The notes under the pieces: model-generated
What the model was told of the DNA's origin: nothing
What the model saw: only the letters and a program-made list of their open reading frames with translations
Database searches by the model: none
Position numbers and translations under genes: made by a program
Part shown: one piece after another, positions 24,012 through 32,503 of the stretch
Numbering within the stretch: the stretch's first letter is position 1
How the letters are laid out: the number at the start of each line of letters is the position of its first letter
DNA from: Escherichia phage JoYop
Sequence record: OR769032.1
Reading direction: 5' to 3' (one strand)
Length of the DNA stretch: 64,000 bases

Positions 24012-24300
24012 ATCGGTGTTTACAATGGCGACATTTATAACGAAGATTACTATTCTGCCAATGAACTAATTGTACCTGTTCAGTGCCGCACTTTGGGCAA
24101 TTAGGAATATTCTTAGAAGCTCTTTCACGTCGTTCAACCATGGCCATAATAGCATCCCATGCTGGAGGTTTAAAATCTAAATCGTCGCAACCATGAATCT
24201 TTCCACGCATTTCCATATCATCTTCCTCACCAGCCATAATAATTTTAATTAAACTGGAATTACTTGAAGCTGCGATGTCTTCTAATAAACGCTTTTTCAT
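23983..24300 (-). CDS. zinc-ribbon protein
   Basis: CPKCG...CRHCKH four-Cys motif; true start may be the internal MAGEEDD. Confidence 0.5.
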
Positions 24301-25226
24301 TTCAATACCTCGATGGCATTACGTAAACCATTTGCTTTGGCGGTTAAAGCCTTAAGAACTTTAGTATGCTCTTCAATTTGTTTTTCAACTTCAGCCAAAC
24401 GTATATTGAGATATTCACGTTCTTCGCTCAGATTATCAACCTTTTCTACTTTAGGTTCTTTTATAACTGACTTATATGTATTAGGGTTCTTCAGTTTAAT
24501 TAGAATGCGTGAACTATATAACATTGAACCATTATCTTCGGTTTCGTCATACATTTCTACTACGTCCATGATTTTTAACATCATGCGGAGTTTATAAGAC
24601 AACGAACGAATAGTTTTGTTGTGCTTATTAATTTCTCTAGAGTTCATGGTGCCGAGATTACGTGAGTAATAATAAGGAACCTGGATATTAATTAATACTG
24701 ATGAACCACCTGGCTTGTGTGTTACTTCATCAGCAATAACCCAGTCCTTAACATGAACTGTATTTGTACGATCATCGCCCGCGGTGAACAGTTTGCGAGC
24801 ATGCTTAAAAAGCATATTCACTTGGTCATTGAATTGGCAAGCAAATTTATCAGCAAATTTGGTTTCAGGAATGGTAGAAAACCAATCAGCCAAATGAGTC
24901 TTTTTAACATCATTAACAATAGTAAATTCAACCAAATCGGTTATAGATGTCTCAGATTTAATGAAGCTCGGCTTCATAAAGTTTTTAATGTTCTCATGAG
25001 CTACAGTAGAAGATAACATACGAGAACGTTTAAACCATTCAAGCAAATTGCCTAACGAATGAGAATAAGCGTTTTGAGTATCTTTACAGATATGATTTTC
25101 CTGTCCAACATATTGAAGGAAATCACGAAGAATATTATTAACTACTGCTCTGTGTCCTATCTGATAATTGCGATGTTTAGTAATAAGACTGTCAAAATAA
25201 TCAATATAATGTTTACGAGTTTTCAT
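24297..25226 (-). CDS. coiled-coil protein A of a four-gene tandem set
   Basis: 309 aa; ATG 25224-25226 with RBS; C-terminal heptad-rich helix. Confidence 0.65.
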   Translation of the reverse strand: MKTRKHYIDYFDSLITKHRNYQIGHRAVVNNILRDFLQYVGQENHICKDTQNAYSHSLGNLLEWFKRSRMLSSTVAHENIKNFMKPSFIKSETSITDLVEFTIVNDVKKTHLADWFSTIPETKFADKFACQFNDQVNMLFKHARKLFTAGDDRTNTVHVKDWVIADEVTHKPGGSSVLINIQVPYYYSRNLGTMNSREINKHNKTIRSLSYKLRMMLKIMDVVEMYDETEDNGSMLYSSRILIKLKNPNTYKSVIKEPKVEKVDNLSEEREYLNIRLAEVEKQIEEHTKVLKALTAKANGLRNAIEVLK

Positions 25227-25280
25227 ATTCTTCTCACTTAGTTAATGATTTATGCTCCAAGCCATCCTTGGCTTTAAATT

Positions 25281-26282
25281 TTACTTAATTAACTGTAAAG
25301 CTTGTTCAAGACGATCAAGACGATTAACAGATTCTTCCCAAATCCTTTTAGCCTGTTCATATTCTTTCTGTGCTTTATTAGAAATTTCTAGAACTTCTTT
25401 ATAAGCTTTTTCTAGTGCAATAACTTCTGGACGAATTTCTACCGGTTCAGGTGAATCATCAAGACATTCTATTAGTTCCTCAAGAGTAGTTTCTTCTTTA
25501 GGAGTATTCACAATTTCCTCGCATTTTTGTTGATAAATTTCTTTATCAGTCGGTGAGTACGCGCATTTCACTTCACGAAGGCTAATTATAATTTTATATC
25601 CTTCCCAACCACATATATTTTTGAAAGGATACGTATGAATACTTTTTACAGTTTCCATACAGCCCAAAGCCGCCTCTAACTGATGGGTTATAGTACTAGC
25701 AATTGAGAAAAATTTATTAATATTCTTTTGGTTAACTTCCGGTGTAAAAAATCCATAATTCACAAAAATAGCTACTTTATTTTTATCAAGCTCATATTCT
25801 TTTACGATAATCATATCAGAAGCTAAAGGATGAATTTGACGATAATCACCATAACATAATTTAGAAGCTGATTTTAAAATTTGTCCTTTAAAAAGTCTGA
25901 AATTACTAATCCAACGACGAGTAAAAATATTCTCAGGGTCTTCTTTATTATTAAGATGATAAGAATTAACATCACCGAACCAATTATATCCTACTACATC
26001 TTTGGTTCGTTTAATTTCTTTCCCAAATTTACCAAAAATATCCCGATTAACCAAATATGAAAGAAGACGAGACCCTTTAAAGGTTTCCTTAATATCATCT
26101 TTATCTACACGGCTAGAAATTTTACAAACTTCATGAATAAATTTACTTGAAGAAACTATACTTGCATCAATACTATTGAGCCATTGATTGATAATAGAAA
26201 GAACACCGTGATGACTAGACATGGGTTTAACTTTATCATCAATAACGCTATTGAATGATTTGATATATTCGTTACGAGTCAT
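25281..26282 (-). CDS. coiled-coil protein B of the tandem set
   Basis: Start at ATG 26280-26282 (MTRNEYIKSF) with RBS GAGGAG; 334 aa; C-terminal coiled coil. Confidence 0.65.
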   Translation of the reverse strand: MTRNEYIKSFNSVIDDKVKPMSSHHGVLSIINQWLNSIDASIVSSSKFIHEVCKISSRVDKDDIKETFKGSRLLSYLVNRDIFGKFGKEIKRTKDVVGYNWFGDVNSYHLNNKEDPENIFTRRWISNFRLFKGQILKSASKLCYGDYRQIHPLASDMIIVKEYELDKNKVAIFVNYGFFTPEVNQKNINKFFSIASTITHQLEAALGCMETVKSIHTYPFKNICGWEGYKIIISLREVKCAYSPTDKEIYQQKCEEIVNTPKEETTLEELIECLDDSPEPVEIRPEVIALEKAYKEVLEISNKAQKEYEQAKRIWEESVNRLDRLEQALQLIK

Positions 26283-26307
26283 AATAATCTCCTCAGTAGA
26301 AAGTAAG

Positions 26308-26340
26308 AACATTATACCACATTCTTGTGGCAAAGTAAAC
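26308..26340 (-). promoter_or_regulatory. early promoter candidate upstream of protein B
   Basis: GTTTAC at 26335-26340 and tggtataat-like -10 on the transcribed strand. Confidence 0.4.
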
Positions 26341-27347
26341 TAGTTCAGTGCATTTAGTGCATTGTTCAGTTTAGAACGTTGTTTTGTCAGATTTTGAACC
26401 CTTGACTGTGCTTGTTCTAACACCTTTTCAGCTTCTAACATTTCATTAGTTGCTTTAACAAGTTCATCATCTACTGCTTTAAGAGACTTCTCAATCGCAT
26501 CGGCGTGCCATTTTTCTACAGGTTTAAAATTTGAATTTTCAGTAGGAAGAAAACTCACTTTATTAAGTTTCCATGCATCTGTACTACTTGAACTGTACAT
26601 CCAACATTTAGGATCGTTGGATGAGCGATTAGTTTGAGGTTCAGGTTTTTTCTCTTGCGTAACTTCATCCTTTCTCAAATAATCATATTTAAATGAAACG
26701 ACCATATCAAGTTCATATGTTGTCGTATCTAATTTAAATCGTTCGAAATGCTGCGAAATCTTAGACTGAACAGCGGAAACAACATCCATATACTTAAATG
26801 CTTCTGTCAATTGTGATTTAAGGCATTCACAGATTGAAAGAGAATTTTTTGTATTAGGTTTAAAGCTAATTCGTGCAGTTCTGTTATTTTCTTTTAATGG
26901 TCTTACTTCCATCTGAAGAGTATAACCATCAAATTTCAGATTCTTTAAGTTAATGTCAGAGCCTTTTAATCGACTAGCTGTGGACAAAATTTGCTTTAGT
27001 TGTTTACGAAATAGAGCAATAAATCTCCATTCAATACGATAATGATTTGGATTGAAAAATCCAGATGATAAATCGACCTTACTTTGACCAACGCCTTGAA
27101 CAAATAGAGGATTTTTATAATCAATAGTTTTACAGAAATCAACGAGTTGTTCACGAGCAGTCATTTGTGTAATATACCCCGCTTTACTAAAATGACGTAA
27201 CCATTCACTGCTATTCAGATGCTTAAAGGCATGAATGGAACAATTAACTTTACCAAGGTCTAAATTATTTTCGCACAAAAATGTCATAACATCACGAGTA
27301 TAACTGGCATTACGAACAATATCTTCAATTTGAGAACGAGTTTTCAT
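26340..27347 (-). CDS. coiled-coil protein C of the tandem set
   Basis: 335 aa; ATG 27345-27347 with RBS AAGGAA; C-terminal coiled coil. Confidence 0.65.
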   Translation of the reverse strand: MKTRSQIEDIVRNASYTRDVMTFLCENNLDLGKVNCSIHAFKHLNSSEWLRHFSKAGYITQMTAREQLVDFCKTIDYKNPLFVQGVGQSKVDLSSGFFNPNHYRIEWRFIALFRKQLKQILSTASRLKGSDINLKNLKFDGYTLQMEVRPLKENNRTARISFKPNTKNSLSICECLKSQLTEAFKYMDVVSAVQSKISQHFERFKLDTTTYELDMVVSFKYDYLRKDEVTQEKKPEPQTNRSSNDPKCWMYSSSSTDAWKLNKVSFLPTENSNFKPVEKWHADAIEKSLKAVDDELVKATNEMLEAEKVLEQAQSRVQNLTKQRSKLNNALNALN

Positions 27348-27355
27348 AGTATTCC

Positions 27356-28246
27356 TTAAGATTTAAGTAAATCAACAATTTTAATTAACTTTTCACGCTC
27401 AGATTTAGCTTTACTACTCAATCCAGATAGTCTAAAAATTTCATCATCATATTGTTGAATAGAAATATTCAGTTCTTCAATCTGTTTATTAAAATAATCA
27501 ATTTGTTCAGAATGTTTTTCGTTACTACGAACTGGTACAGGTTTTGTAGGCAATTCAATTGAACTGGATTCATCCGGGCGATAAATTAAAATACAACTTG
27601 AACCAATTGGGCATTTTGCACCAGATGAATATTCTAATGTTCCAGCTTCTTTTAAAACTTCAAAAGCTAAGCAGAGATGATGCCCCATATTAACATAATC
27701 TGTAGAGCGAGCTCTAATGTAATAATCAATTCCACGAGTACTAAATTTAAAGCATTTAAGGTCTTCTGTATTATTAGTCTTAAAAATCATTTGTTTATCT
27801 AGACCTTTAGCCAATCGAGCGCCTAATGCTAATAATCGTCGTTGATTTTCCCACAAATCTGTAATCATTTGATCGAATGATAATTTCGGCATTAGTCGAC
27901 CATAAAGGTCATATCCTTTATTATAATTGCGAAGGATTTCACTCGCGTTAATACGAGACAATGCTCCAATTTTATTAAGGGCTTTCATAATGCGATTAGA
28001 TAAACTCATTCCAGACCCATTTGTTCGCTGTAAATGTTTTTCTAATCCAAATCCAATATCAATTTTAAATTTATCTAAAATTTCAGCATGAACATCTCTG
28101 TCAATAACATTCAAATCCAAAGTTGGGTTAAATCTATGAAAAAATTTATCTGGCTCTCCACGACGAAATACAGTCCATTCATTCATCATTTTTTTATTAA
28201 CTAAAGATTTAATTACTGCATTGACATTATTAATTACTACTGACAT
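27356..28246 (-). CDS. coiled-coil protein D of the tandem set
   Basis: Start at ATG 28244-28246 (MSVVINNVNAV) with RBS GAGGA; 296 aa; C-terminal coiled coil. Confidence 0.6.
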   Translation of the reverse strand: MSVVINNVNAVIKSLVNKKMMNEWTVFRRGEPDKFFHRFNPTLDLNVIDRDVHAEILDKFKIDIGFGLEKHLQRTNGSGMSLSNRIMKALNKIGALSRINASEILRNYNKGYDLYGRLMPKLSFDQMITDLWENQRRLLALGARLAKGLDKQMIFKTNNTEDLKCFKFSTRGIDYYIRARSTDYVNMGHHLCLAFEVLKEAGTLEYSSGAKCPIGSSCILIYRPDESSSIELPTKPVPVRSNEKHSEQIDYFNKQIEELNISIQQYDDEIFRLSGLSSKAKSEREKLIKIVDLLKS

Positions 28247-29689: not shown

Positions 29690-30409
29690 TTACGATTCTT
29701 CTAAATGTCTTTTCTGAAAAGTTGATACCATACTACGATATGGTTCATTTGGATACCCGTGTTTTATAGCTTCCTTTGTAAATTTTCTCCATCCATATTT
29801 GGTTTCTTTCCAAAGCTCGAATAATTCATCTTCATATTGCCATATAGTTAAATGAGAACGCTTTGCAGCTTTAATTCCATTAATGTGCTTTTCTTTTACT
29901 GTAGGATTGCTTAGTGTCTTTTTAATAATATTACTAACTTTTCTAACAAAAGCTGGGTCCTTATATCGTTGTGAAGTTTTTATTGAAGTGTTTAATTTAG
30001 CTTCCGGCGTGGATGTGACCTCTTTCATCTTTTTCTTCATATGCTGTATATGATTAGGATTTTTCCATAAATTTATAGAATGCTTTTTACATTTTATCCT
30101 AGTTTCATCTGCAACCTTTCCTCCTTCACCCCCATATGACAGGTTAACACAGTTTTTTCCATATTTCAATTTACCTGCCATGATATATAATATTTCAGCT
30201 TGTACCATTTTATCATAATTATCAAAAACTTCTAAAACCGTTTTTGATAATATGTGGTCATTTGACACTTTTACACGTTCTATATAATTTCCACTACCAA
30301 CATATGAATCATTGATGTTATTAGTTATATGTCGACCATAATAGTATTTCTTAATACCTGTCTTTAAATTTAATATTTCAGTTTTATAGATAGTAAAATA
30401 TTTTTTCAT
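29690..30409 (-). CDS. GIY-YIG-type homing endonuclease candidate (Seg-like)
   Basis: 239 aa; N-terminal TIYKTEILNLKTGIKKYYYGRH...YVGSG resembling the GIY...YIG core; lysine-rich C-terminal half typical of DNA-binding modules. Confidence 0.55.
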   Translation of the reverse strand: MKKYFTIYKTEILNLKTGIKKYYYGRHITNNINDSYVGSGNYIERVKVSNDHILSKTVLEVFDNYDKMVQAEILYIMAGKLKYGKNCVNLSYGGEGGKVADETRIKCKKHSINLWKNPNHIQHMKKKMKEVTSTPEAKLNTSIKTSQRYKDPAFVRKVSNIIKKTLSNPTVKEKHINGIKAAKRSHLTIWQYEDELFELWKETKYGWRKFTKEAIKHGYPNEPYRSMVSTFQKRHLEES

Positions 30410-31374
30410 TTTAATAATACCGTTTCAGCAATTTCTTCCCAATGGTTTTTGTCGGTCATAATAAAGTCAGCAAGATAAAGAGCAGTACGCAGTGAAACAT
30501 TGCGTAAACGATTAACATTAACTTTCATCCATGATAATGCTTTATAAGTTTCTTCATCAGAAAGACCACGTTTTTGCATCATGTCAGTTGAAAGAATAAC
30601 ATCTTCAACCCTGACCATAATTTCTTCATTAGTGTGAACACCTAAATCTAAATAAACTGAGCGGGACACTAATGCTTGTAAATGTGGAGCAAGTTTAGTT
30701 CCACGGTCTAATTCACGGTCAATGTCAACGTTTGTGATAAAAACAATCGTTCCTTTAAATTCAAACTCACGCTCAATGCCTTTTTCTTCTAAGTAAGAAG
30801 ATGCAGTGCTCCAGCAGACTTTACGGGTCTCTCCAGTGTCCAGAGCAGCTTTTAGAAGATTAAGAATGTCCATATCAGAGAAAACATCCACATCATCAAT
30901 TAAAAGGACAGAATTCTCTTCACGATTATTCCAGAGCTGCTCATAAAGACCGATACCAGAGATTTTACCATTAATGCTTTTATATTCAATGTATCCAACA
31001 TCATTTGCTTTATTTAAAGCTTTATCTAAAGAATACGTTTTACCAATACCTGCCGCACCAGAGATAATTAATGAACGAATGTTTCCGTTAATAATACCAT
31101 TCGTCATCATTCCCATAACATTAAATCTTTTATTAATGCGGGTTTTCATATCTTCATATGATTCTTTAACTTCTTCAACTTTTACACCATCATATGAAAT
31201 ATCTGATTTGTAAACCCAAACACCGCGACGCTTACCGTCAATTTCAACAAAAACTTTACCATCTCCTTGTGCATCTACCGGAGCATTATCTGGGAACCAT
31301 TCACCTAAGAGCTCAAAAGTTCCAGAGATTTCTTTACCGAAGTAGATACCCTTATTGATAGTTACAGTTTTCAT
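30406..31374 (-). CDS. P-loop NTPase
   Basis: Start at ATG 31372-31374 (MKTVTINKG); Walker A GAAGIGKT, Walker B LLIDDVD. Confidence 0.7.
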   Translation of the reverse strand: MKTVTINKGIYFGKEISGTFELLGEWFPDNAPVDAQGDGKVFVEIDGKRRGVWVYKSDISYDGVKVEEVKESYEDMKTRINKRFNVMGMMTNGIINGNIRSLIISGAAGIGKTYSLDKALNKANDVGYIEYKSINGKISGIGLYEQLWNNREENSVLLIDDVDVFSDMDILNLLKAALDTGETRKVCWSTASSYLEEKGIEREFEFKGTIVFITNVDIDRELDRGTKLAPHLQALVSRSVYLDLGVHTNEEIMVRVEDVILSTDMMQKRGLSDEETYKALSWMKVNVNRLRNVSLRTALYLADFIMTDKNHWEEIAETVLLK

Positions 31375-31489: not shown

Positions 31490-32503
31490 TCATTTATAAT
31501 AACTTCGGTGGTTTTCAAGATAAACCTTCTCAAGGAAGTCATCCCAGAAACTCATGTCTACTTTTTGCTGCATACCGTTCTTAGAAGCTTCAGTAGATGC
31601 TGCTTCTACTTGATCGACCACATCTTCCAAAAACTCTTGAACCGTTTTAAACGGATGCTTACCCAACTTCACGTCGAGAATAAATGGAGCATCTTTGAGT
31701 GGATAGACCAAGTCACCAGTTTTGTAAATTTCCAATAGTTGGAGTCCACCACGACAAGCATGACTTAGTGCTTTCCAGTCAATACCTTCATTGGCTTCAG
31801 CCTTACGAGCACGTTCACCGTATTCAGCATCTAATTTGTTCAGTGACTGCTTAAGCTCAATAAGAGAAAGCGTTGTCTGATATTTACGACCCAACACAGT
31901 GTAGAACGTTTGAGGGCCTGTTTTCTCATGATTATGGAATACCCATTCACAGAATTCGTTTTCTGGAAGACGATGCTTAATATCTTCAACCTTGGTACGA
32001 CGCTGCTTAATATAACCATCTTCTTGATAGTCAACCCACTGATCAGGGATTTGATTAACTACTTTCAATACATCACGTAATGCAGCCAAACGAGAACCCT
32101 TAACGCCATATTTAGAAGCTTGCTTACGAACATATCCTAAATAGGATTTCATGTTAGTCGTATAAAAACGAGAACGGTTGTCTTGAATAAACTTCCATAC
32201 GTCAGGCAAATCAGATTTAACCACTAGTTCAGGTGGAGTGTGAAGCATATCTAATGCTACAGTTTCACCATCTGCTGCTAATTTAAAGAAATACTTAAGA
32301 CTATACAATTCGTGGTCAATATCATCTTTAGTGTTTTTAGATGATGTGTTGTTAGTGTTTTTACTCATGTGCTCTTTAACGTTTCCGATAAGAATATCAC
32401 GAGCAGGAGGAACAAAAATTTCTTTAAAATCTACATCAGATTCTGGAGTAGAAGTTCCATAAAGATGACTACCAAAATAGCTTTTCATTACTGTTTTCAT
32501 CAT
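31490..32503 (-). CDS. Pol-beta-superfamily nucleotidyltransferase-like protein
   Basis: 337 aa; N-terminal GSHLYGTSTPESDVDF (GS-x9-11-DxD motif) followed by a helical domain. Confidence 0.6.
   Translation of the reverse strand: MMKTVMKSYFGSHLYGTSTPESDVDFKEIFVPPARDILIGNVKEHMSKNTNNTSSKNTKDDIDHELYSLKYFFKLAADGETVALDMLHTPPELVVKSDLPDVWKFIQDNRSRFYTTNMKSYLGYVRKQASKYGVKGSRLAALRDVLKVVNQIPDQWVDYQEDGYIKQRRTKVEDIKHRLPENEFCEWVFHNHEKTGPQTFYTVLGRKYQTTLSLIELKQSLNKLDAEYGERARKAEANEGIDWKALSHACRGGLQLLEIYKTGDLVYPLKDAPFILDVKLGKHPFKTVQEFLEDVVDQVEAASTEASKNGMQQKVDMSFWDDFLEKVYLENHRSYYK

Follow-up and report, generated by a model that had tools for sequence, protein, structure and literature searches.

Four adjacent genes in Escherichia phage JoYop, the orthologs of T4 nrdC.3, nrdC.4, nrdC.5 and nrdC.6, encode one superfamily of proteins, each made of an N-terminal body and a C-terminal coiled coil. 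They lie in a stretch of 64,000 nucleotides (nt) from sequence record OR769032.1, which was analysed as a whole and is referred to as the window, and they are numbered genes 1 to 4 by increasing position. The four proteins are homologous, have a common architecture, are under purifying selection and vary in copy number between phages. The explanation that we favour, with a probability of roughly 60%, is that they are an expanded family of paralogous, oligomeric anti-defence inhibitors, with NrdC.5 directed against Dsr1 and the others against other defence proteins or sensor variants. The phenotype of NrdC.5 is already published, nrdC.3 and nrdC.4 are already one family in the databases, and hundreds of genomes carry annotations of these genes. 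What is new is the four-way NrdC.3-6 superfamily, the domain map, the bridging sequences, the expansion from one to four copies and the prediction for nrdC.3, nrdC.4 and nrdC.6.

Homology among the four proteins

Among the four proteins, BLASTP detects only the pair of genes 1 and 2 (E 3e-6); the remaining pairs are not significant, and profile comparison was thus required. Family alignments were assembled from database homologs and from the syntenic loci of T4, Mosigvirus, Dhakavirus and Gaprivervirus, and the tails were removed before the alignment with hhalign. Using the bodies only, nrdC.3 and nrdC.4 align at a probability of 97.8% (E 1e-12), i.e., at the profile level they are clearly homologous, while nrdC.4 and nrdC.5 align at 73% (E 3e-5, 133 co-linear columns) and are probably homologous. 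The neighbouring families nrdC.8, nrdC.10 and nrdC.11, used as controls, give E-values of 0.05-0.6. Between paralogs the bodies are less than 25% identical. Profiles of the tails alone match each other weakly (best E 8e-4), and since coiled coils match by composition, these matches were excluded as evidence of homology.

For nrdC.6, the small family profiles give E-values of 0.06-0.2 against nrdC.3, nrdC.4 and nrdC.5, which is no better than the controls. The link emerged only with an enlarged superfamily profile and a bridging protein from phage IME523. A profile of 28 sequences from nrdC.3, nrdC.4 and nrdC.5 finds the nrdC.6 family with a probability of 90.3% and an E-value of 1.5e-6. In the controls, three neighbour families reach E 0.27-0.44, the gene 4 alignment in reversed form reaches 0.24 and the best among 30 column shuffles reaches 0.12. 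The match persists, at 85-92%, when any single subfamily is omitted.

Two bridging sequences connect the families. The protein P0209 from Klebsiella Marfavirus phages matches the family models of genes 3, 2 and 1 at E 4e-14, 3e-8 and 6e-5, respectively. For QEA10564, a protein of 335 residues from the nrdC-proximal locus of Enterobacter phage IME523, the match to the superfamily profile has a probability of 97.6% (E 4.8e-12, 242 columns) and that to the gene 4 family one of 92.6% (E 4.6e-7, 162 columns spanning the core and the tail); the controls give E 0.1-0.16.

A preliminary description of the window had proposed that the genes arose by duplication and divergence, and had named a lack of detectable homology or shared fold as the result that would speak against it. 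The all-against-all profile comparison that it suggested gives the opposite: genes 1 and 2, genes 2 and 3, and the superfamily and gene 4 are linked by the matches given above, and together with the bridging proteins and the controls these support duplication and divergence. The alternative is that the four have no common ancestry, and that their coiled-coil tails became similar by convergence or chance. It would agree with the isolated BLASTP hit, with the weak tail profiles and with the failure of small profiles to reach the nrdC.6 body. However, it is highly improbable given the body-only matches, the bridging sequences and the clean controls, as well as the common order of elements in the predicted structures, a Foldseek match across families and the co-linear motifs described below.

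Domain architecture and predicted structures

All four proteins have the layout noticed in the preliminary description, an N-terminal globular region and a C-terminal heptad-rich helix. The bodies are basic in all four (isoelectric point, pI, 9.1-9.4; net charge +7 to +10) and the tails are near neutral. A coiled coil was called where an uninterrupted 3-4 hydrophobic register of at least four heptads lies inside a predicted helix. In the tails of genes 1-4 the a/d register is unbroken over 46, 50, 53 and 46 residues, with one or two non-hydrophobic residues among the 14-16 core positions, and it stops one or two residues short of the C-terminus. A cruder heptad score is equalled by 4, 3, 0 and 4 of 300 sequence shuffles for genes 1-4, respectively; for gene 2 the maximum of this score is found at residues 185-212, outside its tail. 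Profile matches of the tails in the PDB are to keratin and myosin coiled coils only.

Long heptad tails were found in none of the neighbours nrdC.7, nrdC.9, nrdC.2 and nrdC.1. The neighbour nrdC.8 was considered as a fifth member and ruled out, as it has no profile match (E 0.37) and its heptad run covers only 15 residues. No additional superfamily member was found elsewhere in the window.

The AlphaFold2 model of gene 4 has a predicted local distance difference test score (pLDDT) of 76.9 and a predicted template modelling score (pTM) of 0.64, and its two C-terminal helices, residues 246-272 and 278-295, follow a low-confidence linker. The model of gene 3 has a pLDDT of 64.6 and a pTM of 0.49, and after a low-confidence linker it ends in a helix of residues 279-334 (pLDDT 72-90, mostly 83-90). 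The order of the elements is common to both models: an N-terminal helical region is followed by a long helix ending in [AS]RL.KG.D, a beta-hairpin, a helix with L..AF/AL..M, a second beta-hairpin, the disordered linker and the terminal helix. Foldseek finds NrdC.6 of phage JS10 with the nrdC.5 model (E 2.6e-4), and the two models have the neighbours PM2 A0A0A0PZG4 and PS2 A0A023W506 in common. The fourth-best neighbour of gene 4 is a protein of 335 residues from IME523 (E 2e-7), which, from its length and its phage only, we assume to be QEA10564. Structure prediction, proposed earlier as a check, thus agrees for the monomers of genes 3 and 4 in the order of the elements, at Foldseek template modelling (TM) scores of only 0.3-0.5.

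Three motifs, A, B and C, are co-linear across all four proteins. Conservation within the families of genes 1-3 is highest in the final block of the tail. The end motif L..[AV][ILVM]..L[KN] is present in 24 of 28 diverse members and in one of the 92 other open reading frames (ORFs) of at least 80 residues in the window. Between body and tail, the linker of gene 2 (residues 251-282) is acidic, with a pI of 4.05.

The array and its T4 counterparts

The window comes from a Tequatrovirus (T4-like). At the DNA level, the region shares 97.2% identity with Escherichia phage PaulHMueller and ~93% with RB10-type Tequatroviruses, and it is matched by 654 phage records. Synteny with the annotated T4 record identifies nrdC.3, nrdC.4, nrdC.5 and nrdC.6 as the orthologs of genes 1-4, which answers for all four genes the earlier question of homology to T4 nrdC.x genes. 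The order in T4 along transcription is nrdC.11, nrdC.10, nrdC.9, nrdC.8, nrdC.7, nrdC.6, nrdC.5, nrdC.4, nrdC.3, nrdC.2, nrdC.1, nrdC, 49.3, 49.2, 49.1, pin, 49, and it confirms the location in the nrdC-tk accessory block. Identity to the T4 proteins ranges from 62% (NrdC.3) up to 97% (NrdC.6), and the product of gene 3 is 100% identical to cm3_201 of Escherichia phage JoYop.

The genes had been described as four adjacent minus-strand genes of 309, 334, 335 and 296 residues. Coordinates, strand and three of these lengths stand. In gene 2, however, an ATT is found at 26285, and the start is the ATG at 26282, placed 6 nt downstream of GAGGAG; thus its product has 333 residues, as in the T4 annotation. 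The two proteins said to start with MKTR are those of genes 1 and 3, and gene 2 starts with MTR. The ratio of nonsynonymous to synonymous substitution rates (dN/dS) against T4 is 0.33, 0.18, 0.24 and 0.09 for genes 1-4, and this purifying selection shows that the ORFs of the array are real, functional genes.

No catalytic Pfam or NCBIfam domain was found in the four array proteins, as expected from the earlier remark that they have no recognisable catalytic motif. Gene 3 matches DUF7235 (PF23882) with 363.6 bits (E 1.3e-108) over model positions 1-307 of 307, at a Pfam gathering threshold of 30 bits, and no match to DUF7235 was found at E <= 1 in genes 1, 2 and 4. Precomputed assignments place all homologs of gene 1 in PF26897 (Phage_T4_Y04OP) and all homologs of gene 4 in PF26899 (Phage_T4_Y05B); genes 1 and 2 themselves were assigned via phrog_1435. 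Both phrog_1435 in PHROGs and PF26897 in Pfam already unite nrdC.3 with nrdC.4.

Many GenBank phage records label nrdC.1-nrdC.11, all four array genes included, as 'thioredoxin'. No thioredoxin domain was found in the four array proteins, and the gene name nrdC.x is apparently where the label originated.

Distribution, copy number and recombination

An exhaustive hidden Markov model search with the alignment of genes 1, 2 and 3, run over 1.84 billion representative proteins, returned only 21 clusters, one of them P0209, and the superfamily as seen in these sequences is tiny and confined to T4-like phages. A scan of viral contigs with gene 2 found only 5 close loci, and tblastn walks were confined to single genera. 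Kanagawavirus and Marfavirus have one member, at the nrdC-proximal locus (IME523, L014 4737-5744; Klebsiella phage Marfa, L015 5001-5948). Mosigvirus has three (6-like, 5-like and 3-like), as do Dhakavirus and Gaprivervirus (6, 5-like and 4), and Tequatrovirus has four. The single copy in Kanagawavirus and Marfavirus suggests that expansion gave rise to the arrays of three to four genes seen in the E. coli-infecting genera.

Within the array, recombination is visible at the level of parts of genes. Compared with T4 nrdC.3 (L006 7057-7983), the identity of gene 1 is 80-85% over the first ~80 residues and 96% over the last 27, but in the central body it falls to 33-60%, and synonymous divergence (dS) there is saturated. 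This suggests that the nrdC.3 body has been swapped as a cassette by recombination. In Salmonella phage Manna, the gene Manna_094 (L010 5215-6252) is an in-frame fusion, nrdC.6(1-272)::nrdC.4(250-333), with nrdC.5 deleted and the junction at a short patch of similarity, QQYDDEI/QQKCEEI (GAAATT). Copy-number variation, cassette swap and deletion fusions are the turnover that is expected of arms-race genes.

On a metagenomic T4-like scaffold (L016 3570-4900, P0033), nrdC.5 up to about residue 264 is joined to nrdC.3 from about residue 136, with nrdC.4 removed, and the N-terminus of nrdC.5 is called as a separate ORF of 115 residues. A functional nrdC.5::nrdC.3 domain swap was ruled out here, since a frameshift splits the nrdC.5 part and makes the locus a decay product. 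Another deletion between members is seen in P0210, a metagenomic remnant ORF of 48 residues that has the first ~37 residues of nrdC.5 and the last 12 of nrdC.4 (…LDRLEQALQLIK). The nrdC.6 homolog of Shigella phage Sf25 (gp220, P0093) is 378 residues long by an exact internal tandem duplication of ~82 residues (IRAHSTDY...QIEEL), which may be real or an assembly artefact.

A model for the function of the array

When supplied from a plasmid, T4 nrdC.5 restores plating on MG1655 carrying dsr1 of ECOR17, and a T4 clone with deletions plates on ECOR17 only if dsr1 is deleted; in the same study nrdC.5 is called an early gene (Srikant, Guegler and Laub 2022, eLife, PMC9391042). The tetratricopeptide repeat (TPR) sensor of Dsr1, common to Avs7 and other effectors, is reported to be triggered by a phage major capsid protein, and the sensor-domain family has 9,097 proteins with varied effectors (2026 preprint, PMC12803255). 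In the literature searched, nrdC.3, nrdC.4 and nrdC.6 appear only in gene lists, no paper on the mechanism of NrdC.5 was found, and the accessions PF26897 and PF26899 are mentioned in no paper. The earlier idea of an inhibitor family thus has experimental backing for T4 nrdC.5 with its anti-Dsr1 activity, and for nrdC.3, nrdC.4 and nrdC.6 it is what we infer.

Each protein is built from four parts: a basic body, a disordered linker of variable length, a canonical heptad coiled coil of 46-53 residues and the end motif. We suggest that the variable body is a stoichiometric binder of a host defence protein, and that oligomerisation of the inhibitor through the coiled coil would give avidity against oligomeric targets. 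NrdC.5 would then neutralise the SIR2-TPR NADase Dsr1, probably via direct binding early, ahead of the late capsid-protein trigger. For the products of nrdC.3, nrdC.4 and nrdC.6, the probable targets are other defence proteins or further sensor variants of the Dsr1/Avs7 type. The bodies of genes 1, 2 and 4 are less than 25% identical to NrdC.5, and their targets are therefore probably different. The array genes would be non-essential accessory genes, probably expressed early, also in JoYop; by HIDEN-SEQ, nrdC.3-nrdC.6 are all non-essential in T4.

Several points weigh against this explanation. The demonstrated phenotype is limited to NrdC.5, whose binding to Dsr1 is itself presumed, and in at least one conditional comparison of HIDEN-SEQ nrdC.3-nrdC.6 have no significant effect (q = 1.0). 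The overall dN/dS is below 1 and gives no sign of positive selection. The structural model of nrdC.5 is moderate only, the Foldseek TM-scores are low, and the end motif was defined post hoc, from sequences already inspected. Finally, the basic bodies (pI ~9.2) would also suit the binding of nucleic acids.

Basic heads on a coiled-coil dimer are a common layout of DNA-binding proteins. The main rival explanation is that the four are nucleic-acid-binding or host-takeover regulators which dimerise via the coiled coil, and that the effect on Dsr1 is indirect, e.g., by altered expression or timing. Besides the charge of the bodies, a region of gene 1 (residues 30-86, window 24969-25139) points in this direction, as it is weakly similar to the N-terminal, sterile alpha motif (SAM)-like domain with which tyrosine recombinases bind DNA (PF02899, E 0.13; NF001399, E 0.0027). 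However, the PF02899 match has 13 bits and is below the gathering threshold of 22.3 bits, the NCBIfam XerC/XerD models reach E 0.003-0.03 in only 2 of the 28 members, of nrdC.3-type only, and the Pfam search found neither a helix-turn-helix nor another DNA-binding domain. Further, nrdC.5 alone in trans rescues a phage without it and the trigger of Dsr1 is a protein, which favours a direct block at the protein level. We therefore consider that the regulator explanation is rather unlikely to be correct.

It can also be imagined that all four copies target a single kind of defence, either Dsr1-type sirtuins or the common TPR sensor, and that they are allelic variants in specificity. The sensor domain forms a large and diverse family, one architecture has been kept while the bodies diverged, and the nrdC.3 body is exchanged as a cassette between phages. 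However, the only target on record is ECOR17 Dsr1, and the low identity between the bodies is compatible with unrelated targets, so this alternative is judged unlikely. A more elaborate scheme, which we also hold to be improbable, is that the tails and the end motif let co-expressed paralogs co-assemble or dock on a common partner. Such a multi-headed inhibitor would direct each body against a different Dsr1/Avs7 TPR-sensor member, and swaps of tail and body, such as the Manna fusion and the nrdC.3 cassette, would generate new specificities.

Exclusion genes are also carried in the accessory regions of T4, and the array genes are non-essential. This would fit exclusion or competition factors that act on other phages or mobile elements instead of host defences. 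However, the defence models of PADLOC find no match except BrxC, at E 0.0034 and on the coiled-coil tail of gene 2, and the sole tested member has a counter-defence phenotype, which leaves very little probability for this explanation.

With all four genes in one superfamily, nrdC.3, nrdC.4 and nrdC.6 are three concrete counter-defence candidates in the reference phage T4. For mechanistic work on NrdC.5, the domain map indicates where the protein can be truncated and which motifs can be mutated, and a naturally occurring tail-swap chimera can serve as a test case. The genera with one copy and those with three to four make a traceable case of the expansion of an anti-defence gene family. In addition, a widespread mis-annotation as 'thioredoxin' is corrected.

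Features of the array and neighbouring genes

The coordinates of the array, its parts and the neighbouring genes are collected in Table 1.

Table 1. Features of the nrdC.3-nrdC.6 array and its neighbours, in window positions
Feature	Position	Strand	Evidence and remarks
Gene 1, nrdC.3 ortholog, 309 residues	24297-25226	-	ORF and ribosome-binding site; phrog_1435 E 9e-114; mosaic allele, 62% identical to T4 NrdC.3
Gene 2, nrdC.4 ortholog, 333 residues	25281-26282	-	phrog_1435 E 3.6e-166; 90% identical to T4 NrdC.4
Gene 3, nrdC.5 ortholog, 335 residues, DUF7235	26340-27347	-	PF23882 E 1e-108; 89% identical to T4 NrdC.5
Gene 4, nrdC.6 ortholog, 296 residues, most divergent paralog	27356-28246	-	phrog_2257 E 1e-149
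Gene 1 tail, residues 263-309, ends LRNAIEVLK	24300-24440	-	46-residue register; last 27 residues 96% identical to T4 despite diverged body
Gene 2 tail, residues 283-333, ends LEQALQLIK	25284-25436	-	50-residue register; last block most conserved in family
Gene 3 tail, residues 279-335, ends LNNALNALN	26343-26513	-	53-residue register, 1 of 16 core positions non-hydrophobic; AlphaFold2 helix; 0 of 300 shuffles
Gene 4 tail, residues 246-296, ends LIKIVDLLKS, kink at LSGLSS	27359-27511	-	46-residue register; AlphaFold2 helices 246-272 and 278-295
Gene 3 disordered, indel-rich linker, residues 224-275	26523-26678	-	pLDDT <50; indels among orthologs; lowest identity to T4, 70%
Motif A (helix ..LS...A...L..F), gene 3 residues 55-71	27135-27185	-	highest-confidence columns of the superfamily-nrdC.6 hhalign alignment
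Motif A counterpart, gene 4	27923-27973	-	
Motif A counterpart, gene 2	26025-26075	-	
Motif A counterpart, gene 1	24978-25028	-	
Motif B ([AS]RL.KG.D), gene 3 ASRLKGSD, residues 124-131	26955-26978	-	hhalign of superfamily against nrdC.6 and joint alignment; invariant within families
Motif B counterpart, gene 4 ARLAKGLD	27797-27820	-	
Motif B counterpart, gene 2 ASKLCYGD	25845-25868	-	
Motif B counterpart, gene 1 ARKLFTAGDD	24771-24800	-	
Promoter-like site in the gap of 57 nt that separates genes 3 and 2; TTTACT-17-TATAAT with TG	26311-26339	-	consensus scan
nrdC.2, 105 residues	23983-24300	-	weak zinc-ribbon Pfam matches, E 2e-4 to 9e-3
Homing endonuclease gene, 239 residues	29690-30409	-	phrog_314 E 5e-30
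nrdC.10	30406-31374	-	sub-threshold P-loop AAA / STAND-NTPase matches, E 1e-4 to 4e-3
nrdC.11	31490-32503	-	RlaP nucleotidyltransferase family, E 2e-11

The promoter scan as a whole gave 28 sites compared with 29.8 expected from shuffles, i.e., no excess. The site between genes 3 and 2 is the sole one with outside support, as the equivalent position in Yersinia phage fPS-65 is annotated as 'predicted early promoter'.

Downstream of the array, the start of nrdC.2 overlaps the stop of gene 1 (ATGA), and the C-terminus of its product has a zinc-ribbon-like CxxC...CxxC arrangement. On the other side, the homing endonuclease gene stands between nrdC.9 and nrdC.10. Most of this gene is present in no more than 66 of the 502 phage records that match, and in T4 the position lacks such a gene. 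With their matches to NTPases (weak, nrdC.10) and to a nucleotidyltransferase family (nrdC.11; Table 1), nrdC.10 and nrdC.11 may be further accessory or anti-defence candidates.

Comparison with known systems

The closest known protein is T4 NrdC.5 (Y05A, PF23882). Gene 3 is its ortholog, at the same position in the array, while genes 1, 2 and 4 are remote paralogs of the same architecture. These three differ from it in being below the DUF7235 threshold, with bodies that have diverged as described above.

Two other products of the same pin-nrdC-tk block counter one defence system each: gp49.2 counters OLD (PMC13096335) and nrdC.1 counters Septu (bioRxiv 2025.11.20.689424). They resemble the array proteins in their location and in being non-essential. 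However, they are small proteins unrelated to the array, and no homology of gp49.2 or NrdC.1 to it was found.

The internal proteins IPI, IPII and IPIII of T4 offer a parallel in organisation, i.e., a variable, hyperplastic anti-defence locus with a short conserved terminal module, diverse bodies and a gene content that changes from phage to phage. Anti-defence roles are reported for IPIII and IPI (cited in PMC9391042 and bioRxiv 2025.11.20.689424). However, in the IPs, which are injected, the module is a capsid-targeting sequence at the N-terminus, whereas the module of the array proteins is a C-terminal coiled coil and their genes are apparently expressed early.

A functional analogy is found in DSAD1 of an SPbeta-like phage, which is reported to counteract or inhibit the activation of DSR2 by the tail tube protein (PMC11087589, PMC10973363). 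Here too, a phage product acts against a SIR2 NADase defence, and the sensor of this defence recognises a virion structural protein. No sequence or fold similarity of the array proteins to DSAD1 was found.

Finally, the databases hold the members of the array as three separate families of unassigned role, with genes 1 and 2 in PF26897/phrog_1435, gene 4 in PF26899 and the third being DUF7235. Here, these three families are joined as one superfamily.

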